64,000 bases of DNA from a virus, in the IMG/VR virus record IMGVR_UViG_3300034198_013268, positions 9,422-73,421 of that record; one strand, written 5' to 3'. The translations under genes were made by a program, and so were the position numbers. This document shows positions 772-31,262 of the stretch, one piece after another (position 1 is the stretch's first letter; every line of letters begins with the position of its first letter). The notes beneath the pieces were generated by a model that ran no database searches, was not told the origin of the DNA, and saw only the letters and a program-made list of their open reading frames with translations.

Positions 772-3700
772 TTATTTCCCTTTGTTTTCAGGCATATTAC
801 GTACAAAATTGTTAATAAAAGCTGCGCCTTCTGCGGAGTATCTCTGTTGGCGTAGGTCTATGTTGTAGCGCTTTATTGCTTCCGCAACGAGCTTGCTGGC
901 GATACCCTGACGTTTTGAATCTGGTGAAATAAAGACGTTCATGTTTCCTTTTTTCTCAAGAGGAAGGTCTTGAGGGTAGTGATAAACAATTCCTTTTAAT
1001 ATTCCTGAATCATCTCTCCAGAGAAGGCAATCAACCCATTGATTTGGTTTTAAACCATTCCCAGTTCCTTTAAAATAGGAAAGACCAGGAGGGCCTATTT
1101 TTTCAAATTGCTCAGCCTGGCTTTTGAATGGCCACGGCATGCCATTAAGGCTTTCTTCGACATCTTTCCAGGGCTTGCCTTTGAACGTCGGCATCTTGGC
1201 CTTTTCTTCCGAAGACCTGTACTTCTTAAAAGACCCTCCCATAGAAGGGTTGGGAGCAGCCATGTTGCCGGAAATGTTGCCCGTGTTGCTAGCAGAAGAC
1301 GCAGGTTCAATAACACGTCTGTAGCGAATCTGTGTAGAACGAAGTGCTCTGTTTTCTTTGTCCCATGCCAACAGTTCCTCGGGGGTAACGCCTTCACCAA
1401 ACTTGTCTTTGCGCGACTTCTTAATTAGTGCCCTTATTCCGCTCCGTATCTTTTTGTCAGAATCATTTAAATTTCCGTCAAAAATATCGCTCACAGATTC
1501 AGATAGTTTGTTTAAGAATTTGTTTTTTTCATTTTCATCGTACCAGTAGTAACCGTTGCGCGGCCAGTGCGATGCGCCAATTCTTCCTTCGTCGCCCATA
1601 CTATTTCCGTACAGGGATATTTCTGATATTCCTAACTCTCTGTATATTTCTTCGTTGCGTGCGTTTAGTGCAGTTGCTATTCCCAGTCTTTGTGCTCCCG
1701 TTCCAAATCCTTTAACCTCCATCCATTTGTGTTCTGCTTCTGCCGTATCTTTGTCAAAGTACATAACCCTGATAAAGGACCCAACACTATTTTCGTCGTT
1801 AACTCCGCTAGAAGATTTTCCTAAATATTTAGGCAGAATCTGTCCAGATATTTCTATGCGTTTTTTGTTTGGGGGAATAGGGTAGGCTGCGTCATCCCAC
1901 CCTCCATCTCCAGTATCGGTTACTGTCACGGTTAGGGGAACTATATCGAACTTGTTCCCTCTGTTGATTTTTTCCCGGTCTATATAGTCTTTCTGTCCAA
2001 CTATTACGCCAGCAAAAGCCTCTCTCATGGCAGCTTCTATATCTTTATTACTTCCGCCGTCCGCAATGAGTTTTTTTGCTTTTCTAGCTGCAGACCTCTC
2101 GTTTTTTGAGACAGTTTGATTCTCTGCAGATTTTTGTACACCGGAACTTGACATTTTTCCAGTAATGTCGTTTTGCGATGCCCAAATCAAAAGGTCCAAT
2201 GGAAGGTCTTTATCATTGAACTTGTCCATTGCTCCCGGCTGTTTACCTATAACGTCTCTAACTAGTTGCTTATCGGGGTCTGACAAAGCGTCAAAGGTGT
2301 TTTTTAAATCGTCGTCTTCTACGAATTTCTCTGGTTTTCTAACGGTGGGTTCAGCCGGTCTTGCTACGGGTGGTACGTAGTCTTTGATTGATGGGTCTAT
2401 TCTGCGTTTGACCACTGCATCAAAGACTGTTCTGCGTGGAAGCTTCATATCTTCAGCTATCTTTTCAATACTTTTTCCAGCTTCAAAACTTGTCAAAATC
2501 TGACCATCTCGGCTTCCTTTTGAAACCGGTTTTGGGTCTACTTTGATAGTGGGTCGTCCAGCCATTTTAACCGTTTGATTAGTGTCGTCAAAGTCGGCAT
2601 GAACGTACGCAAGCGGGTCGAGTATTTTTAGGGTTCCGCCCTTTTTCTTCTCTGCAAGCAGTTTTCTAGTTGTTATGTCTTCAGAGTCCCAAAGGTAAAA
2701 CTCATCTGCAAATTCAGCCACCTTAGGCATAATCCTGTAGTTGGTATTCATGACTGCCGGAATAAAGCTTGACGGAAGTCTTCTTGGGTCTGTTTGTTGA
2801 CGTGCTTCTACGTTTGAGGTTAAAGCAGATTCTGGAGCAACGTTGTAGTGGGCAACAATGTCATAGCCTTTGGCTCTTGCTGCCGTTAGTGTTCCAAAGC
2901 CTGCGTTGTATTGCCCTGTTGAGTCGTACACAATGTCGAGGCCTTCTTCCAACGCCTTCACAATGGTCATATCAGCTACCGTTTTAGATTCTTCATGAAC
3001 GGCACTAGCCCAGTGAGGGTTACCGGCTGCGTGAAGCTGTCTAGCTTCAGGGAATAATGTTTTTATTTCATCAGCATCAACATGGACTGCCGCATCAGCC
3101 TTAGGAATCCCATGTACCCCAAGGCGTCTGTCTGTTGATTTTCCTGAACCAGCTGAACCACCAACGGAAATAAATTGCTTAGGCCCAGTTTTTTTGCGTT
3201 TTGTGACCGTGGCAATTATCGCATTAACCATTGGCGTATAGGTGTTGTCAAAGCGCTCTTTCCAGATTTTTCGTGTCCCACCAAAAGTGGCCGTCACGTC
3301 TACGGATTCTTCTCCCTGAAGAGGAGCGTAAAACCAAGACGTGTCTAAGGCTCTGGGGTCATTTATTTCTTTATCAGTCAAGTAGCTGGGTGTGTCTAGT
3401 TTTCCAACACGTTTTTGCATTGTGTCATCTATCGGCTGCAGGGGTCCTGCTGACATCTTTCCAGAAATACTAGAACTAATCAGTTTTTTTTTAGAAGCTT
3501 TAGGGCCTCGTCCTCTCGGACTGTTATTAAAACCGCCATCTAGGTAGTCGTCGTCTATTGCTTGCCGTATTGCAGCTTCGTCTTCTGGAGATATTGGAGT
3601 ATCACCGAATCCACTTGCTGGTCCTGGAAAACCACCAGGGCCAGGACGTTTTGGTCTTACACCAAATCCACCAGTGTTTTCACCTGGACCATTCGGTTCA

Positions 3701-6700
3701 TCTGGTTTATCTGGACGTTTTGGCGGAGCACTTCCGGGTGGTCGCTTAGGTTGCGTACCGTACCTAACCCAATCGTCGTACTCGTCAAATTCTTCAGAAC
3801 TCCATGTTCTATTTCGTGGAAATTGTGTGTCTACGGTAAAAGGGGTGTCTGGCCAATCATCGGTCGCAAGTCTTCGATTTCGAGTGCTTGAAACGGTTGT
3901 GTCGGTAGGGTCGTATTGAGGGCTTGCGTCGCTGTCCGATGTAGAGGCAGGACGTCTTGCGGCGTTTGGTTGTGTTCCTCTATATCTATCGTATTGGTTT
4001 CTGGTAGAGGAATTGCTTAAAACCTCGTAAGCTTCGGATAGTTTTTTAAACTCTTCTTCAGCTTTTGGGTTGTCAGGGTTTACGTCCGGATGTGTCTCTG
4101 CGGCTTTTTTTCTGTAAGCTTTTTTAATAACATCATCAGAAGAATCTGGAGCTACGCCTAGGTCGGCATAATAATCTTTATCCTTCCACTGTCGCGGCCC
4201 AGATGTTGCCATTTTACCCGTGATGCTGCCGTTGTTGTTCCATTGTGGAATATTGGGGTAGATGACATTGTTTTCATACGTTACACCGCCAGTTGGAGAC
4301 TCCCTGCCAGCTACTTCATCTATCGCATCAAGGAAAGCTTTATCTTCCTCTTCGGTTATACCCATATAAAAACCATGGCTCTTGTAGCGCGCTCTACCTG
4401 CTGGGTGGTCAAGACTGTAAGAATGGAAATGCTTACTTATTGGTTCGTGACGCTTCCACTCTTCATTATTTTTATCCCAGCCACGCCATGGCCACCGATG
4501 ACGGTCATAGAATTGAGCCAAGCTCATTAAGCGAGTTAACTGCATTGGTCGTACACCGAGTTCGTCTGCTATTTCACCAGTAACTTTGGCTTCGTTTATC
4601 TGAAAACCTACCGGCGCTTCCCTTCTTGCTTTTGCTATGCGCCTATGTGCATACCAGCCTGCATGAAGAGCAAATTCTTCAACATCAGCATCATTTATAT
4701 CTAAAGTTCCTTTTTTGTTTATTTTTTTTGACAACTTTATAGCCCTAGAAGACAACTCATCTAACGGCATGTTTATGTATGCACGTTTTTTATCGTTCCA
4801 GTCGTGAGCTTCTTCTCCAGTATTTACCGGAGGTATTCCCATTTTCCCGGAAATAGATTTTGCTGTAACCCGTCCAAGGTCACGCGCAATTACCGGATTC
4901 ATCCACTGTTCAGGCATTGCGTTGAGAATATTATTTTCTTTAGATTTTGACCCGACCGTAGCATTTGAAGCAACAGCCATTTTTTGTATTGCATGTGACT
5001 GTATGTCTTGCGCGGTACGAATTGGCATGTTGTTTCTTTTAGCAAAACGTATTGTTGATTCGCCATCACTGAGGCGTCTCATCATAGACAATTCTGATGG
5101 CGTCAAAACAGCGTCTCCATAATTTGCTAATGCACGCTTGAAAGCCTGACGACGCTCTTTGTCAAAAGAGCTAATAAATGCCCTGTGGTTTCGAACATGT
5201 GCATTTACCATCGATTCTGGTATGTTTAAGCGCTTTGATGCACGAGATGCTCCGCCGGCCTGATGTGCAGCCATCATGTACGTGTTTTCTTTGGCAAACA
5301 TTGAGTCTATATTGTCAAGATTAAAATTTGCACCGCTACGTTTTGTCAATCGTTCATCAGCGTTTCTTACTTTTGAAAACAGTTTGTCTTCAAAAGAAGA
5401 ATAATCTTGCTCAGACATTCCCATCATGCTGCGCATTTCATCAAACGAAGCGCCGTCAAGTCTACGCAATAGTACTTGCCTATCACCAGCAGATATGCCA
5501 GGAATATTGTGTCTGCTTAAGGCATCGCGATATATTGAGTTAATAGCAGGTTCTGAGGATTCAACAACTTTTGAGTATCTTTCTTGAGCTTTTTGAAGCT
5601 CTTCAGAAGTCATATTAAAAGTTTTTTTAGCTTTAGACATAGGAACTCTGTCATGGGTGAGAGCCATAAAAACTGACCTATCACTATCTTCAAGTTTTTG
5701 ACTAGCTTTGTTAGCCTTGTATCCCATTGATTCCAATAATGTTTTTACGTTATCTGCTGGAACATCGAACTGTTTAGCAATGTCTTCGTAAGATTCGCCG
5801 TTTGTATGCATGAATGCAGTTTTGCGCATGGCGTCGCCGGCTGTCATAAACCCACCAACGCCTTGCCAATTTTGGCCTGGTTTACCTTGCCATTCTGCAT
5901 CTATGGTGGCTTTGCTTCTTCTGTTCATTTCGCTTACACCGGCTTCAGTGAATGGCTTATTAAATAGCGAAGTTCTAGCTTTTTCAGCACGTCTTGATTG
6001 GAACATATTGGGGTCGTCAATTTCAGTAGGTCTATCAACCGGAGGAAGAGACTCAAGGTCAAAAAACTTAATATCTTTTCTACCTGATTCTTTAGCTTTT
6101 TCACGACGAAGAACATTCGCTCTTTTCATTACCTCGCGGTTTCTAAATTTTTGCATCTTTTCTGCGTGAACTAGCCCGTTCCGAATAAACATAGAATCGT
6201 TTTCATAGTCGAGCTCGTCATCTACGGCATCGCGTATCCACGCAACGTGACCAAAACCAGTGGTTATATTTCCATTTGCAATGTCTCGCACTGGAATCCA
6301 TCTTGCACCGACCGCATCATCGGCTGCCTTAAATTCGGCATCAGGACTTACAACAAATTTTGTTGCGTTAACCTCTACGCCACCACTGAATCTTACGTCC
6401 CAGTCTTTTGACTTTATTGTCCCAAGTTCTCTAGTGGAAACGTCAGTCAGATTAGTAGTATCTATTCCTACTTCTTCTAGCAGTTCTCTGCGCGCTGCAT
6501 CGGAGCCCGTTTCTCCTTTGTCTACAAATCCTCCAGGGAGAACCCACATATCGGTGGTGCTAGCTCTATGTGGACCAAACCCGCGTTGAACCATCATCAC
6601 TTCGAGTTCGTTTGTTTCTGGGTTGCGGCGCAGCACTACTGAGTCTGCGGCTCTTTGCATTTGACCTTGGTCTTTGCCTATTACCCAATCGTCAGCGGCG

Positions 6701-9700
6701 TCAGAAGCATCGTAACCAATATGGGCATCGCTCTGATAGGGAATCAGGGCACGACGGCTCCAGCCCATGTTATTTCTTGATTCCGCAACAAGTTCATGTG
6801 TCTCCCACGGTAACGGCCATCCTGCTTTTTGAACCCCAAGCATTTCAGCCGTTGCTGTTCTCATGTCCCTATGAGGGCCACTTAGTGTATTTCCGGTATT
6901 GCGGTCAACAACATAAAGACCCTCAGCCTGCCCGGTAATTGAGTCAAATGTGTTTCTGACCTCGACGTCCAGTGCGACTGGTTTTTCTCCTGTGCGCGGC
7001 TTATATTTTCCAGTGCGCCATGCTCGAGCATTGTCTTTTCTGTTTCTAAGATAATCTGTTTTACGCTTACCCATTAATCCAGTGATGCCAAATGGGTCAA
7101 TTTGAATATCTTCTACTGGAGCACGGTTAAGATAATTGACTATATTGCTGTCCGCAGACTCGGATAAGCCTCTTATTTTTCTTTTTGATGAGCGTACTGC
7201 TGTCGGAACATCTTCTATGCCGCCAGGTATTTTGTCAAGCTCACGAAACATATGACGCATTTCAGGGCTTGCATACCTAAAGGCAACTGTATCTTGATAG
7301 CGTTTTTGACGCCGACCACGCGATGAAGAAATTGCTTCTTTCAGATTCTTGTTGAGACCAGCAAAGTTACTACGCATGCGTTTGTAGATTGAAAAGTTAT
7401 CACCATCAAAATCTCGTAAAATATTTGGGTCACGAGGAACGGACAAACCTAGAGCAGCATTTTTTCCAGCTTGACGCGCTCTATTTTCTGACATATTGGG
7501 GACGGAACTATCGTTACCGCGCATAAACCCGCTAACTCCAAGATTGCGAGCAGTAGAAAGAGCGGAGTCTATTTCTGATTCTATTGCTCTAAGGTCTGAT
7601 ATTTTTTGGTCTGCTGCTTTTGTAATGCGCGCAGTTACTCTTGATGCCCCATCTCCACCTGTTCTGCGAGTCAAAAGCTGGTCGTGCTGCATGAACCAAT
7701 ACAGTGGTCCTCTTATGGATTCTCCAGTATCTGGGTCGTCATATCCAATAAACTGTCTATCAAACCTACGTTGACGATTAAGGTATCTAGCAAAGCTCTC
7801 TTTGTCCGGACGCCATCCCCGCGTCCAAATATCGTTACCATTTTCATCTTGCCGTCCAGTTTTGCGTGCTACTAAACTTGGTGGTCTTTGAATGAGCATG
7901 TTTTTTATGGCATTGCGTATGTTTTTTTGTTCTCTACGTATAGAGTCATACTCAAGGCCAGATTTAGCTTTAACTTCTTCTAGACGGGTTATCTCTTCAC
8001 GAATTTGTCTTTTTACAGTACTGCTATCTGTTCTTTTACGACCAAATTCGTTTCTGATTTTATCAAGTCTTTTTTTCTGATAATCGCCAAATCTCTGACT
8101 AACTCCAGCATCTGCAGTTTGACGTATCCGCGCAAAATCTTGGTTAGAAATGCCGTTGTCAACTGCGTGCATCTTTAAAGCATCGGCAACAATTTTTTCA
8201 TCAAGAATGTTTTCATCTTGTGCTATTTCTGAAAAACTAAGTCCTTGTGATTCAAACAAACTCCAGAAACGAGCTCTTTCTTTTTTAGCTTTTGCACCCT
8301 TGTCAAGCAGTTGAGTTTTTTGTTCTGCTATTTTTTCTTCTACGGCTTTTCTTAGCTCTGCTCCGCTACGTCGCGCGCTTACGTCTACATCAAAATTTTC
8401 ACCGTTTACAATACCCATTGTTGCTGCGCTATAAACGCCAGATGGAAGGGCGTTTATATCAATTGAACCATCAGAGCGACGTGGCAGTGGTCCGCTCATT
8501 TCCTCCATTACAGCAATGAAATCATCCCATGCAAACGTTTCATCAGGACGAACAAGTTCTCCAAGCGGAAGACCATCAATTCCCATGCCGCGAGATAATT
8601 CAGAAGTTCCTTCTCCATCAATAAGTTCGGGTTCTACGTTTTGATAACGCTGCATAATGTGACTATTTGTCATATCCCACCACTCAGGTGAATTTAAATA
8701 GCGTTCAAATACGTCTCTTGGAAGCATTTGAGAATCTGCCTGCGGGTCGTACGGGAGCCCAGTATCAGGATTGATATTCATTGGGTTGTTTCCCCATGTT
8801 GATGGGTCTTCTGGGTCTACGGCAGAAGGGTCATCGCTTCCGGCCCATACCCAGTCCTGGTCGAGATAACCAAAAGCATCCTCAAATGGTTCTTCAGCAT
8901 CCGGCATACCATCTTCTGGTTCCCCAAATTCATCTTCTTCTTGTGGTCGCTCCATCCATCCGGCTTGATACGCAACTTCAAGAAGAGCTTCTTGTTTGTA
9001 GTACCAGTCCTCAATGCGTTGTTGCAGCTCCATTTGTTCTTGTTGAAGCTTTTCACCCTCAGCTTGTATTTCAAGCATTGCTTCTTCCCAGTCTTTTTCC
9101 TGCCATGGCTTTCCGGTAGCTGGGTTGATTGGTGCTGGGTCGTTTACGTCTAGGGTGCCGTTAGCCATTGAATCGAGATATGCAAGGAATTCGTCCACTG
9201 ACATATCGTCCGTGCTTTGTCTTTGACGAATAGCAGGAAGACTTGCACCTTGTGCGGGGTCGGGGACTAAACCATCAGGTCTATTGAGCATGTCCTGAAC
9301 GGCCTGGTCAAAATTGGGGTCATTAGAATCAATGCCTATTTCGTTAATTCTTCGTTCGGCCAACTTGCGCTTAAAGGCCATATCCATATATGTATCATCA
9401 ACAGACTCAAGAATCTCATCAGCCAAAGAACGCCTATCGTTCATGTCTGCACTGGCTGCGGCTACTGTATCTATGACACTTTGAGGGTTTGTCGTGGTTG
9501 GGTCAACTAGCTCTGGCAGAATAAATGTATCCCAAAAATCTGCTACGTCTTCATCTGACATGCCGTTTATATCAAGGCGTGCAAGATATCCATCAGGAGA
9601 ATATTTTTTATATTCATCAAGGAAAGCACCAACAAGGGGGCGTTTAATTTGTGCTGCTTGAGCTAGTTCGTCAGGAGCAAGTGGTGATGTGTTTCTGCTC

Positions 9701-11814
9701 CACATTGGCATTGGTAATCCAGCATTTTTTCTGCCATTTAACGTAAACTCAAATAGTCCGTCAACTTCAGCATCATCCATTGCTCTGATTGCTCTGAAAC
9801 CATCTCGCGCATCGGCAAAATCGGTTAGTGCAAATAGTTCTGGCCCATATGTTGCTAGTTGTGGGTCTGTTGCCCATTCTTCCAGCAGATTTCTTTTCCA
9901 CTTGCGAAGTTTCCACTGCTGCTTTTCTTTAGCAGACATTGGATTATTATTACCAGAAGGTGGCGTCCCAGCCATTCTTCCTGTAATCCCAGCTCCGTAT
10001 ACCTCGCCTGGAGTGCGCGATGTACGCTCTACTCTTGCTGCTCGACGAGTTGCGGCTCTTTCGTTAAATGAAGATTGAGAACCAGCAGATTCAATAGTGG
10101 AGCGCATTGCAGGACGTAGTTTTTGAAAGTCACGTGGTGTATTTGTGTTGTTTGCAATTGTACGCACCTTAAGGTTGGCGTCTCGTGAAGACGGCTTAAA
10201 TCCAAGAACTAGGTCTGAATTGCCGTCTGGTGAAACACCTTCAGGGAACGCTCTAAACAGTTCCCTTTCGGCCCTATCGTCAGCGGGATTGCGACGGATG
10301 TCCTTGTCATTCAGTGCCCACTGAGCAAGGTCGTCCCATGATTTTATCTTTCCATCACGTATTGCATCGATAGCATCTTCACGAATAAACTTTAAGTCGT
10401 TTTTAATTCGTGAGTATGTTTCTGGACTTGAATTTTTAAAAGAATCTTCATTGCGCTTGCGCCGTAAGTTTTCCTTTTTAACAAAATCGGTAACTTCGTC
10501 TCTATAAACATTATATTTTTTGGCAAGAGCATCTACCGAACTCTCTCCATCTTGAAATTCGTTAAATAGTTTTTTCCACGTATCGCCATCAAGTATTGAA
10601 TGTGGTTCATTCTCTGGTTTTTGAACCGGTATTCTTGTTGCTTCAGGTTTTGGCTTAGGTACTTTTGTTTTGGAAAGGTCCTCACGAACGTTGCGAATTG
10701 CACGTTCTGCGCGAACTACCGACGGAGCTATTTCCGGAGTCTGTCCGCTTATTTTGCGTATTTTTGGTTCTTTTTCGCCAGGTTTTTTTGCAAATTGTGG
10801 AAGCCCCATGGCGCGACGACGAAGTTTGCCTGCAACTGTAAAATCAGAACCCGGAGTTGGGTCCGGCATTTCTCTCCAGGTGCCATCAAAAAGAACTCCG
10901 TCGCCGTCAGCATCAGGACGGGTCATTGGATTTGGGTCGCCAGGAATTGGCTTAAATGACCTCAGCGTTCGACGTCCAAGTCTACCGGTGCTTGGTTTTG
11001 TTCCAGCATTAGGTACTTTTTCTCGAGCAATAGCTCTTCCTAGTTTAGAACCTAAAGCTTTAACGTCTAGTTCTTCATAGAATTCAAGGTGCTTTACACC
11101 CCTGGTTGCTCTTTTGCTTGAGGTGTCTATGCTTCCGGTTCCCCAAGAGCCGCTTGATAATTCATTGACCGTTTTTGAACCGGAAGAAATATCCCAAGCT
11201 TTTGCCGGCGAGTAATGGCGAGATTTTTTACCTCGTGAGGTGTCTCTATTTATTCTGTTGTTTAATTTAGAAATAGAAACGCTTGAAAGCTTGCTGTGTT
11301 TGGAATTGGATTTTGAAACATATCCACCACCAATTTTTTTATATGCCATAGCAAGGAGTTGTGCTTTTCTTGCTGTCCATTCGCCTGGCTTGCCCCCATT
11401 TGAGCTGGCCATAATGCGTGCTTTTAGGTTGTCTCTAGCCTCTGGCTTTGTGTAGTTGGAAGCTTTGTTTCTCTGCGGTGTGGCAGTTTCTTGTTTAGCA
11501 GTCTTCTTTTTGTTACGACCGTTAATGGCCCTAAGGTCGCTCTCCAACTGTTGACGCCTGAATCTTCTACCAGAAACACCTTGACCGGTGTATTTTCTAA
11601 AATCAGACTCATTGGTACAGGGCATCCAAGATTCTTTTCCATCCCTATTGTTGTATCTGCGAATGCCAATACAACCAATTTGGCGAGAACGTATTCTGGC
11701 TGAATCTGGGTCACTAAAGACGTCTGGGTCACTAGAACGAACTATTCTAGGGCCGCCAAGGATATCCTTTTTTTCGTCTTCTAGAGTATTTTGTGAGTCG
11801 TCCATTATTTCCAT
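772..11814 (-). CDS. Giant multidomain polyvalent protein (3680 aa): DUF5872-like, HTH modules, Nudix, sigma-r4-like HTH array, DnaJ J-domain, zeta-toxin-like kinase, two GNAT domains
   Basis: Motifs read in the translation: [45 protein letters not shown] (DUF5872-like); Nudix box [23 protein letters not shown]; J-domain DYYADLGV...[15 protein letters not shown]; Walker [11 protein letters not shown] plus VDADEIK; GNAT motifs QRLGIAT and RQGIASKL. Nine [IV]xGxM linkers lie between modules. Confidence 0.85.
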
Positions 11815-11920
11815 CGGCTACGTGGTGCGGAGGCGGGTTTTAGTGCTGCAATACCGGTCAATGCTGCTAACCAATAGTAGCCCACTTGCCTAACATGCGG
11901 GCAAACGTAGAAAGGCTTCA

Positions 11921-12115
11921 TTATTTTTTTGTGCCTTTTTCCAAAATCCATGTTGGATTATTTGAGAGAATTATTGACAAATTAAGTATTCTGCTTTTTT
12001 CTTTGGCTGACTCGATAAAACCCCAGTACACAGGATTGTCTTCGGTTCCCATATTTATGGTCGCGCGCATTTTTTCTGTGCCATCAGGGGTTCTCGCTAT
12101 TACTTTAGGTCTCAT
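11921..12115 (-). CDS. Small hypothetical protein coupled to the 1250-aa protein (possible partner or immunity protein)
   Basis: 64-aa ORF overlapping the upstream stop by 4 nt. Confidence 0.6.
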   Translation of the reverse strand: MRPKVIARTPDGTEKMRATINMGTEDNPVYWGFIESAKEKSRILNLSIILSNNPTWILEKGTKK

Positions 12116-16223: not shown

Positions 16224-16225
16224 TT

Positions 16226-22200: not shown

Positions 22201-22912
22201 CAGCACGATACAGCGCTCCACGAGGCTCAATGCCTGCGTTGAGTTCGTTCTGACTTCTATCATCTATGGATTGAAGGAATTGACCAAGTCGACGAACCGC
22301 ACCCATAGAGCAGCCGAGACCGAGCCTGTTAGTAAACTGTCCACCATTTAACGTATCTTCAGGGCACCGCCAACCCTGCAGGTCAGTGTCCCATATTGCC
22401 CGCATTCCTTTGACTTGAAGCGTAAGGCTAGATAGTTGCTGCTCGAGCTTAAAGGCTTTTGCCTTGTAAGTTACAGCATGCTGCTTATAAGCCACATCCA
22501 TTGATGCAATCAAAACATCCGTTACTGGAAATGAATAAACTGGTTCAAAGTCTTCAACATCGTCTGGCTCCCCATAGACGTCTTCTGGCGTATCAGATTT
22601 TGTTTCCACAATCTGCAGGAATGATTTTTTTTCAAATTCTTCACTTAGTCTCAGGGCCTCCTCTGGGGAAACAAGCTGAGACAATTCACCCAAATCTACA
22701 GCATTTGCTTTTTTGGGTGATTCGACAAATAGGCTTATATCAAGAGAATTAAAAAGTTCTTCATTTGTGAACTTGGAAGAGTTAGCCCATGTAGCCCATC
22801 GCTCGCCCTGTCCATGTGCGCCAAAAGCACGCATATCACCATTGGGGCTTGTTACTAAAAGAGCAAAGGGCTTACCGTCTATTTTGTCTTTTACGACTGA
22901 AATAGTTTTCAT
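16226..22912 (-). CDS. Giant protein (2228 aa) with RCP leader and a putative C-terminal ADP-ribosyltransferase-like domain
   Basis: Long ORF. RCPEDTLNGGQFTNRLGLGC leader and one ITGQM linker. C-terminal IARGV...GQGMSQHGRGEYW...MGVDAI...VLNRS pattern resembles phage head-associated ART-like domains. Confidence 0.75.
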   Translation of the reverse strand: MKTISVVKDKIDGKPFALLVTSPNGDMRAFGAHGQGERWATWANSSKFTNEELFNSLDISLFVESPKKANAVDLGELSQLVSPEEALRLSEEFEKKSFLQIVETKSDTPEDVYGEPDDVEDFEPVYSFPVTDVLIASMDVAYKQHAVTYKAKAFKLEQQLSSLTLQVKGMRAIWDTDLQGWRCPEDTLNGGQFTNRLGLGCSMGAVRRLGQFLQSIDDRSQNELNAGIEPRGALYRAGRLTERTADNVRAGRVEKFTKRSERRVRKATDRQLNPSFRNTYSALNPNAPMVARARTAAGLRMSRVGQDIAQRGFIDMSEGGRRARKVKPEITISQELRDKGGVWDENLPIYFNPMAGQLYETGAMTLNPWFGSPKKHNGTPSGEQEKFKFLTQEEMLAGLSAATRSYTWQDILNGTGDWADMDTGVRFYPSDWEELHALGLEVNGKYDHADDTLKNRRKAEKFIRRVSGDNKEFADAWVDYAFEDVLIDDAFNGGSLKPSRRRNIAKTILTFDPLSNTVKQKRKGWAGRILSLDPLADGETRRSRRRVDKKSKKENKVAGEIANLHDFFKNINVDESDAISNIEQNISANVRFYSPSKIGEPTPEWEMFKGLVDQIILDSGFDPGEDVVVSAERGLANGIEGYGLSGNPTAPDRGAYVSLYRHFPSGDLPSPADTSIELSNYRVVTLSDGKTEEQRILREEMSLRIVTGTDGKKHVVSIDMAQYWVDPKRYNSTTVTALDDRMVGPLVGRDDLLEPVTSPYSTGVASHLAMVLDSDGDMLAMEMNGQAPYSGGKDIEHNVVTGKTSTGITGQMSLGRHTDGQFVSPKGREYLDEFINTGNGNWWSNKSKRKNTRPIRRDIRGDQPEVPGIISRWMSGEGRQWARESAAAKRLEQGRMPKPTDNLRIRLAKRIARVGYDIRNEGVPEGMKITIPQSLSELPMISSRAEEATSPRDIWKLYPSNILEQLRFVPTPGIVDQNEWRDNPDNYGRILDLNNALRNIGGFTPYLTDFDNEHQDDLREVYNSALRDLNDPSKPDVPGSPSNLGHAIVREMDDKVYVYDDRQDHKPLVMVIDNVSGSSHIIGEDGQHLLSVVERVDNKGDRLMMLIAGESTREKIINEPKKSTFTERLTGKFRKRGLKKAPASRQPQRMASRGVQRSKARSGLTYPQTTTGDFLDPSKTYPAHVVDGINRNLHTSLDSLRAEWRSHLKIGPNDPISEDAALDYLEDLKKSNPRLSGIRSGSLHNLLVLSEWENSNDFFLVNNLKPSLRNSIIDDVGIPTGVDRKKKRNFTPHKPTPSSSGGLAQSLGIYDQPVATVRTPGWVRPNDIKPQAPGVATRVITGPSLDPGVGNKALNISYMPNGYIDNNTGLYVEDLSGLEPSALDVYDRSIIPEVDPSTGRYRDFPELQITVNPAIRPKQYVRITAGVDLSADNPALEITTDPRAVKQITDVIPTFNEAVDATKTAQGGRNEEFPRLVKVDFSDPNGGTLAGLSVDRNYADVIAAAGDSRMDNGFFRPYPMDPTNEANPSRIDTSSGSSRPTVNDNLSLQDIRELGMDPFMPHRRFYTPDGDMFVDNGQTGLGQLHLDAIKSMNAALQLEDVTRAVAEALQNNDTKAIGVLQGWIGPIDQAKLNSLRAQADKQWKITLETIRGVHSYTANKMEQDLATYMMSPGNRVALLRYVANGNVMEQMENLLNTHIVHDPDVRDAVTLAERQDLESVAKRLNRQILARRARQASGTSTRQDFGFFDDAPFVLDPHGGLPISNQPNRSPQEITELVQQHRADGFPNAPEVDPTTGAVIIDEISDEHVDALALMDEAYKEYKAGNRSVAGHPDLVGREFHDTDAMMMGSMWEWGGFNSKPVLLSDKELEEMATNVDSDGNPTHLIIARGVNDSWSRGVQYTAGQLAQESLNGERFIPGQGMSQHGRGEYWSLVPVSWSQMHGTDGTTLGLISQESIMSAEVLDGLFGQNSATYEGIWSIVNAIGAPGFPGGVNSRHGDTRVFNIAPNSFAPDPVTGLIDTNGLQSEIDRLTTTDGPMTVEGITSGGWSVPSSIMSGLFPPSGASPAEQVEYAQYRQKLNAWIEQTLNYVVQIASQRQDISQPGQAGKDAIEHNKKLDRAIHTLTYLAPENWALMMGVDAIITPKGLSSDGLDKRDIIPSQLWKSLIGVNPNNPNTGKGNGNVVRVLNRSGIAQSNHTWNLGSARDALRNWRMPDGQQIPHIRNRDWQ

Positions 22913-24972: not shown

Positions 24973-25648
24973 CCAATGGTACCATTCTTGTTTTTTCTAC
25001 TTCGTATCCATGTTCATGTTCCCAGTTGTCATCATCACAGATGTTTTTGACAAATGCTGGTTCCATAGCTATAAAATCTGAAAGCACCGTATATGCATGT
25101 TCCCAGTCTGCTTCTGTCACAACAGGGCTAAAAGTTTCATCAGGAGACTCAATGCCCATAAAAGCTAATGACTTTTTTCCTTCTCTAGATGTAAGTTTTC
25201 TGAGTCTATTATCAAAATCTTTATCCGACCAAAGACTACCATGTATGCCTTTTTTTAGTTTCTTACGGCAGTTCTTCATACCTGGATGATGACATCCTTC
25301 ATTAGGCCACAACCCGGTGGTTTCATGGTGCAACCAAGCACAAATATTATTCAACGGGTAAAGCTCAGGATGGTCAGCCAAAATTACGCGACACCTACGG
25401 AAGCCGCCTTCCTTGCGCATGATTGGACGCCAATAACGGAGAAGGCGCTCAAGGTTGCCACGGCGAGGACCATAGCCATGCAATACGTCTCCGGAGACCC
25501 GTTCCTGAGGAAGAGTATCTGGTACAGCGTTGCTTCCAGTGGGGATTCTGTCACCCATTGCGTTCATTAGGTTCTGGACTCTATCTCCGGCTTTTTCCTC
25601 ATTAGTAATAACTATTTTTGAGTTCATCAGAGTATTGATGATGTCCAT
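24950..25648 (-). CDS. Head-cluster hypothetical protein (232 aa) with Cys/His motif
   Basis: GNLERLLRYW...GGFRRCRVIL...CAWLHHETTGLWP resembles a small module I recall from actinophage capsid-maturation-region proteins. Confidence 0.7.
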   Translation of the reverse strand: MDIINTLMNSKIVITNEEKAGDRVQNLMNAMGDRIPTGSNAVPDTLPQERVSGDVLHGYGPRRGNLERLLRYWRPIMRKEGGFRRCRVILADHPELYPLNNICAWLHHETTGLWPNEGCHHPGMKNCRKKLKKGIHGSLWSDKDFDNRLRKLTSREGKKSLAFMGIESPDETFSPVVTEADWEHAYTVLSDFIAMEPAFVKNICDDDNWEHEHGYEVEKTRMVPLDEDSISF

Positions 25649-25722
25649 AAAATTGGCCTTTGCTGGATTGTTTCTTTTATTAATTGTACGCGCTTATATG
25701 TGCGTACTGTAAGTGTCAATAG

Positions 25723-26070
25723 TTAAATTGAGGAATTGCGGAATATGTCTTTCACCCCAAGGTGTAGTCCATTTATAGCAACGTGTACCTTTTCATTATA
25801 GGGGTTGTACTCTTCCTCAGGCATACCATCGAGTCCTGTACCAAAGTATTTATCTCTCCACTTTTGGTCATCCCAGCGTTCCGACCATAACTCCTGCTGA
25901 GTGGTTGTAACTTCTAGTTTTTCAAGGTCCGACCTGTTGTGGGCAAAATCCCAGAAAGGAACTACGGTTTCTTTTGAACCTATTTTTACTACTCCATTGT
26001 AGTCAATGGCTCCTGGAACAAAATAGAGGGTTGAGCCATCTCCAAATTTGCCAACAAGTACTTTTTTCAT
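25723..26070 (-). CDS. Small hypothetical protein coupled to the 1731-aa protein (possible partner or immunity protein)
   Basis: 115-aa ORF overlapping the upstream stop by 4 nt. Confidence 0.7.
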   Translation of the reverse strand: MKKVLVGKFGDGSTLYFVPGAIDYNGVVKIGSKETVVPFWDFAHNRSDLEKLEVTTTQQELWSERWDDQKWRDKYFGTGLDGMPEEEYNPYNEKVHVAINGLHLGVKDIFRNSSI

Positions 26071-29000
26071 GCTGAAGTACTCGATTTCCTTGAGTTGAGT
26101 ACTCTTTCCATCTCTTGAGCAATTTTTTCTTTTATTTCATCCTGAAGATTAAGACGGATTGCTTTTTCCGCATCCGCAGATTTTGGCGCTCTTGAATTAT
26201 GTGTGCTTGGGGAAAATACGTCTAAGCCGGCCTGGTTTTTAACGGTTAGTCCAATCCCCTTGCCGTCAAGATATTCTTTAAAATTCTTTGCAGCCATGAA
26301 TGTTTCTAGTCTTTTCATGTTTTCGGGGATGTAATTAGCTTCACGGAGGTTTTTTACAGCATCTAGTTTTGCCGAAGATGTAATGCCCATTTTGAGTATT
26401 GCATCATCAGAAAGAGGGTCTTCTTTAAAATTGGCAAAAGACTTAGGTATAGCGTTGTAATCTATAGCTACGTGTTCTATTTCTTCTGGTTTTACACCGC
26501 CGAGGGTTAAGGACTCCATGGGTGCGTGTGTTCTCTCTGTAATTTCCGAACCGTCCGTGTTTCTGCCAGGACGAGTTCTGTGCGCAGAGAAGTCTTTTTT
26601 CCATTTTCCGTAAAGCATTTCAAGCGGGCTTATGTTCCATGTGTCATCGGATTTAACGCCATCGTGCCCGGAATGTATCAATGCTTGCTGTATCAGCTCA
26701 GAGTTATCTGAGTTCATCCCAACAGGTCTAATGTGGTCATTTACGGCATCTCCGTACCCATAAGAGGTTCTAGCAGATACCTCTGGTCTTAATGTTAACT
26801 CAACGTCTCCGTATGTATCTACTCGGCCGCGAACACCATTGGTAGAGGGGGCAAATTCTGGGCTATACCTCTGCGGGTCAGTTCGTCCTGTTTGTGTCAA
26901 TCGGTCAGCAGAGTCTTTCAACTCACTTTCAAGCCAGTCTTGATGAACTACATGACCGGAGATTGGACGCATTTCTTCTGGGGTGTCTGGGTGGATACCA
27001 ATCCAGGCTTCATATTTTTTGCGAATGTTGTTTCCTGTAGCGTTTTTTCTAGCAACTCCAGAATCAATAACGTTTTTTATAGATGCGGAAGGAACTTGTA
27101 TGCGCACGCGAGGGTCTATGCCGGCGTGAAACTCATTTGCTGCAATTCGAACATCCCTAGCTAATGCTTCTTCGCTTGAGTTGGCTATGTACTTCATGAA
27201 ATCAGGGTCGAGTCCGCTTAGTTCGTTTAACATCCCACGGTCAGGGCCGTCTATGTTTGGATATCTATCGCTTGGGTGAATGGGTGAAACATTTTCACCA
27301 TTTGCTAAAGCCTTGATGTGAGATATTCTCTTTGTCAAGCTGTCTGCATAAGGAGTTCTGCGTGTCTGTAGTGTCTGAACTGGGAGGGTTGAAGCACCAC
27401 GCAAAGGACCGTTTATCTCATCTGCATACTTTGTACCTACGTCAGTTCCAAATGAACCACCTTTTTTAACGATGGCTTCTTTGGCATTTTCATTTCTTTG
27501 TGCAACCGACGATGCTGACATTTTCCCAGAAATATTCGAAGAAATTGGCTCGTTTTCGACAGAATCAATTTTACTCCCGGCGTGAAAACGACGTAAATCA
27601 TTGTTCCATTCAAATACGTTTAACCCCACTTGCGGCGTGCGCATAATGCTGGATTCAGGTATTTCATATTCAGTTATTTTTCCGCCAGCCTCTGTGTAAG
27701 CTTCGTCAAATGACTTCTTTTTATCTGTATTTCTAAGCTTTAAGAATTTTTTAACATCAAGAGTTGAGTCGTCATGTTTTACCCCTACTAAACGGCCATT
27801 TTTATTAACGTGCTTGCCACGTTCTGCTGCTACCTTGAGGTCGTCTACTGTTTCTCTTGAGACAAATACGGTGTTGTCAAAAATTGATTCAGCACCTTTT
27901 TCTCCATCATTGGTTATTGTCGTTCCAGTAACTGGGTTTTTTTGACGATGCAGTTTTCCGTCAGGCATTAGAGAGTATTTTGAACCATTCTCCGTAGTGA
28001 ATGACTTCATTTTTCCAGAAACGCCTTGTTCGTAATTGGCCATTTCTTTTTCATAGCGCTGCATATCGTCTTGATATTGTTTGCGTTTTTGTTCAACTAT
28101 TCTTGGAATAGAATCAACATCAAGTAAACCTTGAGGAGTGTCCGGGTTAGTAGCGGCTCGTTCAAGTATGCGCTGGACAACCTCTGCGGAAGCAAGTGCA
28201 TCGGCGTCTGCCGTATGCCAACCACTTCCAAGGTTTACATCAAGATATTCAGCTAAAGGACCCAGGGAACTTGAGGCTTTTTTGGTCCCATCTTTTGCTA
28301 CCTGTACGGGTCCGTCGGGGTTTTCTGGAGTCCATCTTGGCAGTAGCTCATCTGAAAGCGCTTTGCTGTCTATGACTCCAGCAGGAGTAAAACTCATGCC
28401 TTCTTGTGCAAGTACCCTATTGAGAACTTCTAGGTCAAATGGAGTGTACTGACCGCCAAGAATAGGGTTTTCGCCCATGAATGCAATAAGTTCTTCGTGT
28501 GCTTGTTTTATAGTTTTTTGCTGTGCAAGGTAAGCATCCGTAAGTGGTTCTTGAAGGTCGTTTTTAAGATTTCCTTGAGCCCATTCTCCCAATGGGATAC
28601 CTGGATTCATAAAGACATTAAATCTATCTATGACTTTCCCACCACGCATACGAACAGCGCCAAGCTGTACAGGCATGTTTCCATCGGCACCAAATCCTGT
28701 AGTTTCGTAATCAAAGTAAATAATGTCTAGCTTGTTATATCTATCGAGCATCTCTTGATAGCTTTTACACCCTCTAAAAATGTCAATTAGAGAACCCGTC
28801 ATTGGGCCATTATCAGGCTCTCTTGGGCGCGTTGGCTTTGATGCCATCTTCCCAACTATCCCACTAGAAGCGGTCCTGCGTTTCTGTTGGCTATTTCTGT
28901 TTACGGCACTTCTGACCCTATTTGCGTGCAGTGAGTCTCTTTGAAGTTGTTGACCGGTACCCATATGCCCGGAAATATTCCATTGACCTGGTGATATGCC

Positions 29001-31262
29001 ATTCATCCGCTGGCCGATGTCGTTTATTTCCCCGCGTATGCGTGGTTCTTCTGCGGCAACATGTGCCAGCCATTGACCGTGCAATGCATGTGCTGGGCTC
29101 ATTGGTACAAAATTTTCGCTTGGGTATTTTTTTCTGTAGCTTGCTTGTAATTTTGCATCAATAAAAGAATCAACAATGTTTTTTGTTCCAGCTTTTTGAG
29201 GAACTGGAACTACTGGTTGACTACCGCCAAGCTGCCCTCTCAAAAGTCTACTGATACCCATGCTTGTTTTTGGTCCAGTGCTTGGGTCCATGGTTGACTC
29301 GCCAAAAAGTCTCATAGTTGCAAAGTACTCTGCTCTTGCTTCTACGTTATTTGATTTTGCATAATCGCCACCGGCAAGTTCTGCCATTACTGCATGTTCT
29401 TCAGGAGTTACGTTAATGTTGTTAACAAAAGCATCGGTGAAGTTATTATGAAAATTAGCAAGGTCTGTTTCTAGGTCTATTCTTCTATGACCAACTCTTC
29501 CTCCTGTATAATTGCCAGTTTGAAGATTAAATGCAGCCTGCCTAATGGCATCAATACTTGGATGATTCATCGGATTTTGTATTTTTGACAAATCGATTTG
29601 CCATCCTCCAACTTCTACGTTGGGCCTTCTTGAAGTAGCAGGACCTGCTGGGTTTAATGTTCTGAAAGCTGGGTTAATTCCACCATTTGGCAAGATTCCG
29701 TACCTGGTAAGTTGTTGATTATCTAGACCAAGAGCATTTAGTTTATTGCCAAAATCCAGCAAGTGTCCAAACTCGTGAGTTGCTAGATAATGAGCTTTCC
29801 CTTCAAATGAGTGAAGTCTGCCGCTGGCATTGTGAAACTGATTATACGCACTGTTTTCACCTCTGCAAAAAGCAAGCAGAGCGGCTGGGTTTATCTCCAT
29901 CGTTACATGGACTCCGCCTTGGGCTGCCGAGTTGGCTTTTTTTGCTGCTGCTGTTGCGGCTACACCCGCAGACCTTCCGCCAGAAAGAATGCTCGGGGCA
30001 AAAGGTTTGACGCTTATTGCAACTGCAGTAGAAGAATCACCATCTATTTTATCAACGATGCTTAATCTTGTCATCCATCTGGCTGCATCTGGATTATTGA
30101 GCATTTCATTAATTTGCCCTTCCCAGAATGTTGTCATTATTTTTTTAGCTTGTCGGTGTTCAAAAAAACTTAACCCGCCAGGGAGGGCATTTTCAAATGC
30201 TTCGTCTATTTCGTTTGGGTCGACATTGGGCAAAAGTTGCGTCATGATATTCATGAAGTTCTCTTTTATTGATATGTCGCCAATCTCATGATAAGTACCG
30301 CTAGCATCAGGAAAAAGCTGTTTTAAACGTTGTCTGCTAATTCCGCCTTTGGGAGCGTCTCTAGCATCTCCAGTAAATTGATAGTGTAGGTGTTGCGCCT
30401 GGGAAGTCAGGATTCTCCCGCGTAGTATTCTTTCTTGTTCCGACAATTTATGGCTAGTTACGCCAATTACGGAACCCTTAATGTTTTTTCTTTGTTCCCT
30501 TGAACTCCCTTGCATTGCTCCAACAATGCCGTACTCGCCCAGTGCTGTTCTGATTCTACTTCCAACAGGCATCGAAGCCATTATTGATTCAAGTTCTTCT
30601 GGAGCAGCTATCCTTTCGCCCGAAGCGCTATAACGTGTAACGTTTGGCCCCCCATTTTCTATTCTGTCTCCGATTTGCCCTGACATTTGAGCAGAAGCGG
30701 TCATGCCTCTACGAACTGCTCTTCTTGCTGAACCTGCGGCTGTTTGTGGTGTAACAATAAAGCAGTTACTGCCCGTTATGTCGGTGAACTGGTTTGCTGC
30801 TGGAGTCCCTGGAGGGCAGCGCAATTTATTCTTGTCATCAACCCATAGTCCTCGTCCTTGCGCTACTCGGCTAAGTAGCGTGGGCATGCTTTCTTTTAGC
30901 TTGGGGCCAAGTGATTTAAAATCAAATTCATCGAGACTTTTAAATGATGGCGATTTTCTATTGCGCCAAAACTCATCAGTAACATAGTTTTCATATTCAT
31001 GAAGTTCGTTTGTACCAGCTTTGCAAAGAAATAGGTTCTTGCCTGGCGGTACAAGCGGTATCGGGTCGCCTTGTTCCCACGTTTTTATGTACTCTTCGTA
31101 TGGATTGGCAAAATTGGATTCTTTTTCAGCACCTTCTTCTTTTTTGGAAGACGGTGGAGAATCTTTTTTTATTTCATCAGGCACGCTCTTGACTAACGAC
31201 CCATTATTGGCCGCAAATCTTTTTAGTGCTTTATTAGCAAATGAATCTTTGTCCCAGCTCAC
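26067..31262 (-). CDS. Multidomain protein (1731 aa): RCP leader, zincin metallopeptidase, DEDDh (DnaQ-like) exonuclease, unknown module, divergent DUF3626-like domain
   Basis: THEFGH plus YAKSNNVEARAEYF (zincin). YFDYETTG...FDLEVL...WHTADAD (DEDDh). RPISG...YGDVELTLRPEVSARTSYGYGD...ESLTLGGV (DUF3626-like). Five [IV]xGxM linkers. Confidence 0.85.
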   Translation of the reverse strand: MSWDKDSFANKALKRFAANNGSLVKSVPDEIKKDSPPSSKKEEGAEKESNFANPYEEYIKTWEQGDPIPLVPPGKNLFLCKAGTNELHEYENYVTDEFWRNRKSPSFKSLDEFDFKSLGPKLKESMPTLLSRVAQGRGLWVDDKNKLRCPPGTPAANQFTDITGSNCFIVTPQTAAGSARRAVRRGMTASAQMSGQIGDRIENGGPNVTRYSASGERIAAPEELESIMASMPVGSRIRTALGEYGIVGAMQGSSREQRKNIKGSVIGVTSHKLSEQERILRGRILTSQAQHLHYQFTGDARDAPKGGISRQRLKQLFPDASGTYHEIGDISIKENFMNIMTQLLPNVDPNEIDEAFENALPGGLSFFEHRQAKKIMTTFWEGQINEMLNNPDAARWMTRLSIVDKIDGDSSTAVAISVKPFAPSILSGGRSAGVAATAAAKKANSAAQGGVHVTMEINPAALLAFCRGENSAYNQFHNASGRLHSFEGKAHYLATHEFGHLLDFGNKLNALGLDNQQLTRYGILPNGGINPAFRTLNPAGPATSRRPNVEVGGWQIDLSKIQNPMNHPSIDAIRQAAFNLQTGNYTGGRVGHRRIDLETDLANFHNNFTDAFVNNINVTPEEHAVMAELAGGDYAKSNNVEARAEYFATMRLFGESTMDPSTGPKTSMGISRLLRGQLGGSQPVVPVPQKAGTKNIVDSFIDAKLQASYRKKYPSENFVPMSPAHALHGQWLAHVAAEEPRIRGEINDIGQRMNGISPGQWNISGHMGTGQQLQRDSLHANRVRSAVNRNSQQKRRTASSGIVGKMASKPTRPREPDNGPMTGSLIDIFRGCKSYQEMLDRYNKLDIIYFDYETTGFGADGNMPVQLGAVRMRGGKVIDRFNVFMNPGIPLGEWAQGNLKNDLQEPLTDAYLAQQKTIKQAHEELIAFMGENPILGGQYTPFDLEVLNRVLAQEGMSFTPAGVIDSKALSDELLPRWTPENPDGPVQVAKDGTKKASSSLGPLAEYLDVNLGSGWHTADADALASAEVVQRILERAATNPDTPQGLLDVDSIPRIVEQKRKQYQDDMQRYEKEMANYEQGVSGKMKSFTTENGSKYSLMPDGKLHRQKNPVTGTTITNDGEKGAESIFDNTVFVSRETVDDLKVAAERGKHVNKNGRLVGVKHDDSTLDVKKFLKLRNTDKKKSFDEAYTEAGGKITEYEIPESSIMRTPQVGLNVFEWNNDLRRFHAGSKIDSVENEPISSNISGKMSASSVAQRNENAKEAIVKKGGSFGTDVGTKYADEINGPLRGASTLPVQTLQTRRTPYADSLTKRISHIKALANGENVSPIHPSDRYPNIDGPDRGMLNELSGLDPDFMKYIANSSEEALARDVRIAANEFHAGIDPRVRIQVPSASIKNVIDSGVARKNATGNNIRKKYEAWIGIHPDTPEEMRPISGHVVHQDWLESELKDSADRLTQTGRTDPQRYSPEFAPSTNGVRGRVDTYGDVELTLRPEVSARTSYGYGDAVNDHIRPVGMNSDNSELIQQALIHSGHDGVKSDDTWNISPLEMLYGKWKKDFSAHRTRPGRNTDGSEITERTHAPMESLTLGGVKPEEIEHVAIDYNAIPKSFANFKEDPLSDDAILKMGITSSAKLDAVKNLREANYIPENMKRLETFMAAKNFKEYLDGKGIGLTVKNQAGLDVFSPSTHNSRAPKSADAEKAIRLNLQDEIKEKIAQEMERVLNSRKSSTSA

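Follow-up and report, generated by a model that had tools for sequence, protein, structure and literature searches.

A recurring methionine-ended peptide at module borders of giant head-operon proteins in a contractile-tailed phage: a candidate proteolytic site

Gene content of the head operon

The window analysed here is a 64,000-nucleotide stretch of viral DNA, bases 9422-73421 of the single 73,421-bp contig IMGVR_UViG_3300034198_013268, and the element in question is a short peptide ending in methionine that recurs between the modules of four giant proteins encoded in its head operon. No terminal repeat was found in the 73,421-bp contig. Because one open reading frame (ORF) runs past its end and the contigs of relatives measure 138-170 kilobases (kb), the 73-kb contig is probably a fragment of a phage genome. 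The plus strand carries terminase (large subunit found), recombination, tail sheath and baseplate genes, and the presence of the latter two identifies the virus as a contractile-tailed phage. The head operon occupies the minus strand. It opens with the portal gene, followed by the genes of a 776-amino-acid (aa) protease of the S78 family, of a 134-aa and a 494-aa protein and of a 1731-aa giant; three smaller ORFs (including one of 687 aa), the 2228-, 1250- and 3680-aa giants, a 60-aa ORF and the capsid gene complete it. The main features are, in window coordinates:

35857..38130, minus strand: portal protein with a MuF-like domain at its C-terminus; the head operon starts with its gene (Pfam and PHROG matches)
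33420..35750, minus strand: 776-aa protein, S78 prohead protease plus DUF6321 (Pfam and PHROG matches)
26067..31262, minus strand: 1731-aa giant, the first in the operon; six modules and five junction peptides, with a zincin-like module and an RNase_T-type exonuclease (residues 806-1084)
28965..30515, minus strand: zincin-like module of the 1731-aa protein (residues 250-766); HEFGH at residue 496, one junction peptide on either side
16226..22912, minus strand: 2228-aa giant; one junction peptide, modules of 811 and 1417 aa, no family matches
12112..15864, minus strand: 1250-aa giant; four modules and three junction peptides, the C-terminal module matching DUF3626
772..11814, minus strand: 3680-aa giant; ten modules and nine junction peptides, with Nudix, helix-turn-helix (HTH) array, J-domain, zeta-type kinase and a weakly GNAT-like last module
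587..769, minus strand: 60-aa ORF (ORF list)
1..447, minus strand: 5' part of the major capsid protein gene, a 449-aa ORF (phrog_10, E 1.8e-55); the whole gene spans contig positions 8519-9868

The four giants fill about 31 kb at the usual position of the scaffold gene. An earlier reading made from the letters of this DNA (hereafter the sequence-only reading) had placed them between the protease gene and the major capsid gene. This is the case, the capsid gene being the 449-aa ORF that reaches window position 447.

A recurrent peptide separates the modules of the giants

The sequence-only reading listed 18 copies of the pattern [IV][STVG]G.M in the four giants. Translation of the nine large minus-strand ORFs returned every one of them at the same coordinates, nine in the 3680-aa, three in the 1250-aa, one in the 2228-aa and five in the 1731-aa protein (all on the minus strand):

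9973..9987, minus strand: ITGRM, 3680-aa protein, residue 610
7522..7536, minus strand: VSGFM, 3680-aa protein, residue 1427
7072..7086, minus strand: ITGLM, 3680-aa protein, residue 1577
5845..5859, minus strand: VGGFM, 3680-aa protein, residue 1986
4840..4854, minus strand: ISGKM, 3680-aa protein, residue 2321
4210..4224, minus strand: ITGKM, 3680-aa protein, residue 2531; within low-confidence segment 1-39 of the structural model
3454..3468, minus strand: ISGKM, 3680-aa protein, residue 2783; within low-confidence segment 252-293 of the model
2152..2166, minus strand: ITGKM, 3680-aa protein, residue 3217; at the start of low-confidence segment 719-733 of the model
1261..1275, minus strand: ISGNM, 3680-aa protein, residue 3514; within low-confidence segment 978-1031 of the model
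15367..15381, minus strand: ITGAM, 1250-aa protein, residue 162; directly after the leader block in common with the 3680-aa protein
14854..14868, minus strand: ISGKM, 1250-aa protein, residue 333
13537..13551, minus strand: ITGKM, 1250-aa protein, residue 772
20477..20491, minus strand: ITGQM, 2228-aa protein, residue 808
30513..30527, minus strand: IVGAM, 1731-aa protein, residue 246; G-x-M core in 10 of 11 aligned class-A relatives (G-R-L in locus L067)
28962..28976, minus strand: ISGHM, 1731-aa protein, residue 763; W-N-[ILV]-[ST]-G-x-M in all 11 aligned class-A relatives
28845..28859, minus strand: IVGKM, 1731-aa protein, residue 802
28008..28022, minus strand: VSGKM, 1731-aa protein, residue 1081
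27519..27533, minus strand: ISGKM, 1731-aa protein, residue 1244

The flanks are biased as had been described, with G, S or N preceding 16 of the 18 copies and S, A or G following 14. Counting against shuffled sequences, the check that the sequence-only reading had proposed, gave a clear excess: 18 matches in 8889 aa compared with a mean of 0.52 (standard deviation 0.72, maximum 5) over 2000 shuffles of the four giants. Across the whole contig (64 non-overlapping ORFs, 23,203 aa) the same pattern occurs only twice more, in the 687-aa and a 1612-aa protein. A stricter form, [IVL][ST]G.M[SAGT], is found 13 times in the giants and nowhere in the remaining 14,314 aa of contig ORFs, with a mean of 0.11 and a maximum of 2 in 2000 shuffles. 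An unbiased count of every three-residue pattern spanning up to five positions was topped by I.G.M, observed 15 times where 0.99 were expected (Poisson p 2.5e-13). The further match in the 687-aa protein, IVGSM (22981-22995), and CLSGSM in the 134-aa protein, which fits a looser pattern only, are not kept as motifs in relatives; we discarded both as chance occurrences.

The copies lie between domains. No copy falls inside any Pfam or PHROG envelope in the window's proteins. Residues 2501-3680 of the 3680-aa protein were modelled with AlphaFold from an 81-row alignment (mean predicted local distance difference test, pLDDT, 69.8), which yielded confident J-domain, zeta, middle and C-terminal domains. 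All four copies in this part lie in or at the edge of segments with pLDDT below 50, which comprise 360 of the 1180 residues, in agreement with the boundary position that had been claimed for them. The model of the zincin-like piece is likewise of low confidence at both ends, beside its two bracketing junction copies.

Cutting the 3680-aa protein in silico at the motif reproduces the piece sizes given by the sequence-only reading (613, 817, 150, 409, 335, 210, 252, 434, 297 and 163 aa). Its Pfam matches, Nudix at residues 1721-1846, HTH (Sigma70_r4_2/GerE) at 2004-2027 and 2236-2285, DnaJ at 2547-2609 and Zeta_toxin at 2875-3028, are each confined to a single piece, and the J-domain and zeta folds were also seen by Foldseek. 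The labels Nudix, HTH array, J-domain and zeta kinase therefore hold, while both GNAT labels are weakly founded: the match of the 163-aa piece to Acetyltransf_7 (E 0.0014) does not reach the cut-off, and Pfam gives nothing for the 297-aa piece. In the 1731-aa protein, for which Pfam gives RNase_T, the exonuclease match spans residues 839-1079 and is flanked by junction copies (802 and 1081). In the 1250-aa protein, the C-terminal module (window 12115-13539) matches DUF3626 at E 6e-9.

Three further features of the giants were noted. Residues 274-331 of the 3680-aa protein (window 10822-10995) and 109-162 of the 1250-aa protein (15379-15540) form an aligned block of 58 columns (58 and 54 residues) with 62% identity. 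A DxDxDG-like stretch lies within the block, whose end falls at the first junction, ITGAM, in the 1250-aa protein and at a degenerate VAGKL in the 3680-aa protein; the block may be a capsid-targeting leader common to both. The 1731-, 687- and 2228-aa proteins share the signature R-C-P-x(6,7)-[QR]-F-T-[DN]-x(5)-C in their N-terminal parts, at residues 148 (window ~30821), 132 (~24579) and 182 (~22369), respectively. The 1731-aa protein also has a 39-residue basic piece between two junction peptides (residues 763-801 or, as a module, 767-805; window 28860-28976), which would be a free basic peptide if excised; relatives have a piece of 40-54 residues at this place.

The peptide is conserved while modules are shuffled

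Searches with the portal and the capsid protein returned 211 and 326 related viral contigs, respectively, and 80 loci were kept from each (numbered L below). When the 1731-aa protein is aligned with 15 relatives, the columns of the peptide are kept and the flanking linkers are rich in gaps and substitutions. Among 143 distinct copies from 37 relatives' proteins, in which G and M are fixed by the search pattern, the first position is I in 96, V in 32 and L in 15, the second is S in 85, T in 41, V in 8, A in 7 and G in 2, and x is free; S, G or A directly follows the Met in 100. Synonymous codons differ at every position of the peptide. The conservation is therefore at the protein level, as had been proposed.

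The modules between the peptides behave as units. Of 2575 module-to-module BLAST matches between different proteins, 1418 cover at least 80% of both modules. The exonuclease module is the fourth in the window and the sixth in L025, L028, L031 and L037; L082 lacks exactly the 297-aa module, and L086 has the zeta module behind the GNAT-like one. Related genomes thus show the same linker flanking gained, lost or reordered modules, a check that the sequence-only reading had proposed. Together, these data support selection on the peptide, at the protein level, as a signal that marks the borders of modules. No excess of junction-type peptides is seen in many head-module proteins of 1000-1800 aa from the relatives, so not every large protein of this family is a polyprotein. 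A generic rule, [GA].M[SAGT], proved too loose, since its matches outnumber those in shuffles (p<=0.01) in just 26 of the 102 distinct ORFs with 1000 aa or more.

Other clades carry other Met-ended peptides

The strict form [IVL][ST]G.M[SAGT] is restricted to the clade of the window. The same unbiased count revealed other peptides in other clades: GPVGxM in L047 (10 observed, 0.36 expected), PSGSM in L054 (9 observed, 0.33 expected), P[TIV]A[SA]M in L045, GP[VI]GxM in L109, and [ED]AGM in L050, L059, L062 and L068. AGM was observed 7, 9 and 6 times in L050, L062 and L068, with 0.6-0.8 expected, and the L059 copies were read directly. Met is the last residue of every variant, and in most cases a small residue (S, A, G or T) comes next. 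In the records behind L050, L062, L065 and L054, the interval from portal to capsid gene measures 45-66 kb, about twice that of the window's contig. One peptide per lineage, rewritten in concert with the Met kept, points to a trans-acting reader that co-evolves with it. The simplest candidate for such a reader is a protease.

Two candidate proteases

The 776-aa protein has a Pfam Peptidase_S78 match (PF04586) at residues 28-171 (43.4 bits, cut-off 21), DUF6321 at 222-293 and a conserved C-terminal part, and it matches phrog_80, head maturation protease, at E 2.2e-25. The prohead protease of the window is hence of the HK97 type and not of the T4 type. Its S78 domain is highly conserved in 21 sequences, with H66 and S130, which we take to be the catalytic pair, invariant in all 21. 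In L047, L054 and L062 the S78 domain, followed by DUF6321, forms the N-terminus of a chain of more than 2750 aa and is the sole peptidase that Pfam finds there. The first unit of this protease-headed polyprotein is the counterpart of the 776-aa protein of the window. A G-[KRG]-M-V-P-N-C stretch at residues ~200-215 of the 776-aa protein, just before DUF6321, is conserved in the clades where it was read.

The protease protein also contains a junction-like sequence, which is uncertain as a cut site:

34662..34676, minus strand: IAGRM, 776-aa protein, residues 359-363

In the window's clade this site is kept as NP..G[RK]M-G. The 26 loci with GxM at this position have 145 motifs in 52,154 aa and the other 15 loci have 16 in 37,382 aa, 7 of these 16 coming from L055; the group of 26 includes L010, L011, L013, L022 and L041 (9,617 aa, 20 motifs), in which SGRMG is shifted by one column, the sums omit loci where downstream ORFs amount to less than 1000 aa, and there are many near-duplicates among the loci. 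An argument from co-variation between this site and the junction code was dropped because the clades with G-R-A at the site have Met-ended junctions of their own. Lacking such co-variation, the site cannot be taken for a junction-type site of self-cleavage. G-R-A as an alternative junction in these clades was weak and inconsistent and was likewise rejected. A complex prediction of the S78 domain (21-row alignment) with a 40-residue ISGKM linker gave a score of 0.00 and a mark of 0.32, which speaks neither for nor against an interaction.

The second candidate is the zincin-like module of the first giant. Its HExxH motif (H247, E248 and H251 in module numbering), E392 and E396 are invariant in all 15 aligned orthologues, and the module is present in 28 related loci. 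The AlphaFold model (pLDDT 74, predicted template modelling score 0.77) aligns best, by VIA-align, with the catalytic part of anthrax lethal factor over 195 residues (root-mean-square deviation 4.7), with a Z of 8.8 that the alignment tool itself ranks as middling. Pro-Pro endopeptidases and putative zinc peptidases follow at Z 5.4-5.6; the enzymes matched are site-specific endopeptidases. The ESM Atlas gave Peptidase_M90 and zincin clusters with scores of 0.83-0.87, which serve as leads only. Neither a Pfam match nor a Foldseek match at E<=0.001 was obtained for the module.

Discussion

We propose that the products of the four giant genes are modular polyproteins carried as cargo in the phage head. 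Each giant would be a chain of independently folding modules, among them enzymes, DNA-binding domains, a J-domain, a zeta-type kinase, an exonuclease and a zincin-like peptidase, and the flexible linkers between them would carry one recognition peptide, [G/S/N]-[IVL]-[ST]-G-x-M-[S/A/G]. The reader would most likely be the S78 (HK97-type) prohead protease that the phage itself encodes, at work within the procapsid, and the four precursors would yield about 22 pieces that travel with the DNA into the host. We infer the packaging of the giants, their cleavage, the scissile bond, the enzyme and the delivery into the host from the features described above. Comparison supports the setting of this proposal, namely modules that are shuffled between relatives and genes that lie inside the head-assembly operon. 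The junction peptide is probably a proteolytic site; that it is the S78 protease that reads it we would put at a probability of about one half. As to the bond itself, the sequence-only reading assumed pieces that begin at the Met. A cut after the Met is more likely, with Gly at P3, Met at P1 and a small residue at P1', because the small-x-Met-then-small layout of the variants parallels the rule for prohead proteases, P3-x-P1 with a small P1'. A broader scenario, which we offer tentatively and at somewhat less than even odds, is that an HK97-type prohead protease acquired specificity for Met at P1 and that each lineage then rewrote the upstream subsites jointly in all of its dozens of junctions, so that any new effector module placed between two junction peptides would automatically be packaged, excised and injected.

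Several observations weigh against cleavage by the S78 protease. We know of no S78 protease that cuts after Met. The IAGRM site of the protease protein reads G-R-A in clades that still use Met-ended junctions, and the capsid protein has no matching junction site, its conserved Met66 standing in the context L-E-x-M-[KND]. The giants and their peptide were found in no cultured relative, and Hanem, the one of the closest cultured phages that was scanned, has separate genes and no enrichment of the motif. The zincin-like module is conserved in every first-giant orthologue of the window's clade, so that there, with both always present, the two proteases cannot be told apart. Finally, a Met followed by a small residue also resembles a translation start. 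Gly codons of the motif were said to be of all four kinds, which is correct, but their use is uneven (GGA 8, GGG 8, GGT 1, GGC 1): GGA or GGG encodes 16 of the 18, compared with a background of 48% in the giants, and codon context leaves this bias unexplained, the share of GGA and GGG before codons starting with A being 51% genome-wide. Predicted pairing with the anti-Shine-Dalgarno sequence upstream of the 18 Mets (mean -3.97) matches that of annotated starts (-3.52) and not that of other internal Mets (-1.87), in a measure that is confounded by the obligatory GG of the motif's Gly codon.

If the peptide is a cleavage site, the zincin-like metallopeptidase could read it in place of the S78 protease, in cis or in trans, either within the capsid or once injected into the host. 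Its invariant active-site residues, its resemblance to site-specific endopeptidases and its position between two junction peptides agree with such a role, and Iyer et al. 2017 (PMC5512222), in the passages used here, predict processing by zincin-like peptidases in polyvalent proteins. A further comparison comes from the other Met-junction clades. A profile search (E<=0.01) recovered a homologue of the module in one of five records, and three of the four negative records contain the whole interval from portal to capsid (60-66 kb, EAGM-type); the S78 protease is present in all records compared. We regard the zincin as an unlikely reader on these grounds, with the proviso that a diverged or non-homologous zincin may be present in the negative records. 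It is also conceivable, at lower odds, that the peptide is not cut at all. It might be a conserved docking or spacer element that contacts the capsid interior, the scaffold or the portal, or a chaperone signal, and the giants would then act intact; the N4 virion RNA polymerase is packaged intact, and some giant phage proteins are packaged uncut (both from passages of PMC5512222). Clade-specific rewriting is compatible with a co-evolving binding partner as well. However, protease sites are typically of this kind, five residues with one free position and small flanks in a disordered linker that separates unrelated domains, whereas a docking element need not recur at every module border. The 39-aa stretch between two copies is hard to account for as a spacer, and the fusion of giant chains to the protease in sister clades fits self-processing. 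We therefore consider an uncut element improbable.

Translation starts are the remaining account of the invariant Met. Nested in-frame protease-scaffold gene pairs are familiar from phages lambda (C/Nu3) and Mu (I/Z), and the Mets could be in-frame internal starts from which modules are also made separately or, in a variant, relics of fused genes. Across the clade variants only the Met is invariant; the residue behind it is S, A, G or T, which many proteins also have at their N-terminus. In the window, both the Gly-codon bias and the start-like pairing fit the idea of internal starts. Yet the residues upstream of the Met are kept as amino acids by varying codons (I as ATT, ATC and ATA; S/T by seven codons), which argues against internal starts, as a ribosome-binding site would not require these residues. 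The spacing differs too: real starts of the contig have AGGAG 8-12 nucleotides upstream, whereas the GG of the motif lies 4-6 nucleotides upstream and, in the EAGM clades, is adjacent to the ATG. The excess of GGA and GGG is small in relatives (57% compared with 45%, n=143), and in EAGM copies the Glu codon GAG, which would give GAGG, is used in 6 of 13, below its background of 62%. Stand-alone homologues of the last module start about 40 residues beyond the module's Met, which is therefore not their ancestral start. Moreover, a single concerted motif per clade requires a common reader. Internal starts thus appear very improbable as the source of the motif, and cleavage by the S78 protease remains the reading that we prefer.

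The giants belong with proteins already described in part. Iyer, Burroughs, Anand, de Souza and Aravind (2017; PMC5512222) introduced polyvalent multi-effector phage proteins that are probably packaged and processed by peptidases. Like these, the giants are very large, combine many unrelated conflict or effector domains and are encoded by a phage with a portal/terminase packaging system. Several unrelated effector domains occur per polypeptide (Nudix, Sigma70_r4_2/GerE, DnaJ and Zeta_toxin; RNase_T). In both cases packaging is a prediction: the passages of PMC5512222 used here predict delivery with the DNA and processing by an embedded zincin-like peptidase, as packaging and delivery are predicted here for the giants from the position of their genes and from the fusion with the prohead protease in sister clades. 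The word "linker" does not occur in the main text of that paper (0 occurrences), and the passages used give no recurring junction peptide. They are also without clade-specific rewriting of a peptide and favour zincins over the prohead protease. Our literature searches, in which supplements were not covered, found no paper on a recurring junction peptide, a Met-type code or lineage-specific rewriting in such proteins. What is already in print, as far as the passages used go, are polyvalent proteins with their probable packaging and peptidase processing (PMC5512222) and the cleavage of ejection proteins by prohead proteases (PMC10052503).

The layout of the proposed site recalls that of other prohead proteases. 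In every clade examined, the recurring peptide has Met as its final residue. Cleavage motifs of T4 and phiKZ, [LI]-x-E or [SAG]-x-E, have Glu at P1. Common to both are the key positions P3 and P1 and a small P1', and the T4, phiKZ and SPN3US enzymes are likewise capsid-resident serine proteases whose substrates are delivered into the host. These are T4-type proteases, however, which cut after Glu and mostly remove propeptides of separate proteins, whereas the window has an S78 protease, Met and sites between modules. According to the portions of PMC10052503 used here, the prohead proteases of T4 (gp21), phiKZ (gp175) and SPN3US (gp245) cut head-internal or ejection proteins at short motifs, that of SPN3US prefers Ser at P1' and Val at P4, and 13 of its 14 mapped sites remove N-terminal propeptides.

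The protease resembles HK97 gp4 in its Peptidase_S78 match at the N-terminus of the 776-aa protein and in a gene beside the portal gene. HK97 gp4 is small, and its known substrate is the delta domain of the capsid protein. The protease here is extended by DUF6321 and about 400 residues more, or by over 3000 in sister clades, and about 31 kb of cargo genes precede the capsid gene. In the capsid protein of the window, the first ~65 residues, up to an invariant Met (residues 1-66; window 250-447), show high conservation in 24 relatives, and a variable stretch comes next. These first residues may be a delta-domain-like leader, in which any cleavage site would, by its sequence, misfit the junction rule. 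Polyproteins of RNA viruses and of African swine fever virus also give many products from one chain through a viral protease and a short cleavage code at module borders. They encode a fixed replication or structural set, whereas the tailed DNA phage of the window has variable, shuffled accessory enzymes.

If the cleavage code is real, it would define a cassette system of 30-66 kb that delivers dozens of enzymes with the DNA, a cargo far larger than that of T4, P1 or N4, for which a handful of internal proteins are known. Read as a polyprotein with Met at P1, this share of the genome would amount to plug-and-play cargo delivery. A simple sequence rule could then delimit functional modules in thousands of unannotated giant phage proteins, and the clades would offer a natural example of co-evolution between a protease and its sites as well as a design principle for loading chosen proteins into capsids. 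Whether polyvalent proteins are processed, and by which enzyme, becomes directly testable.

Relatives of the phage and neighbouring proteins

A search with the DNA of the head region against cultured phages gave no match, and sequence searches of the PDB with the 776-aa and 494-aa proteins returned nothing. The capsid gene is found on seven contigs of metagenome-assembled genomes of mixed phyla, the best of which (85%) is labelled Actinomycetota. The closest cultured phages, Brevibacterium phage Cantare and Gordonia Bendigovirus, share 47% capsid-protein identity.

The 1612-aa plus-strand protein (window 49552-54390), which has no PHROG match, is encoded at the tape-measure position and contains the junction-like sequences MTGSMG (residue 47) and VVGFMK (residue 1031). 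The 687-aa protein is conserved family-wide, also in relatives without junction peptides. For the 134-aa protein, whose gene (window 33010-33414) follows that of the protease, no family match was obtained; it has 49 tblastn matches in all, and its Cys-rich C-terminus (C-x-x-C ... C) is conserved in the relatives that align.

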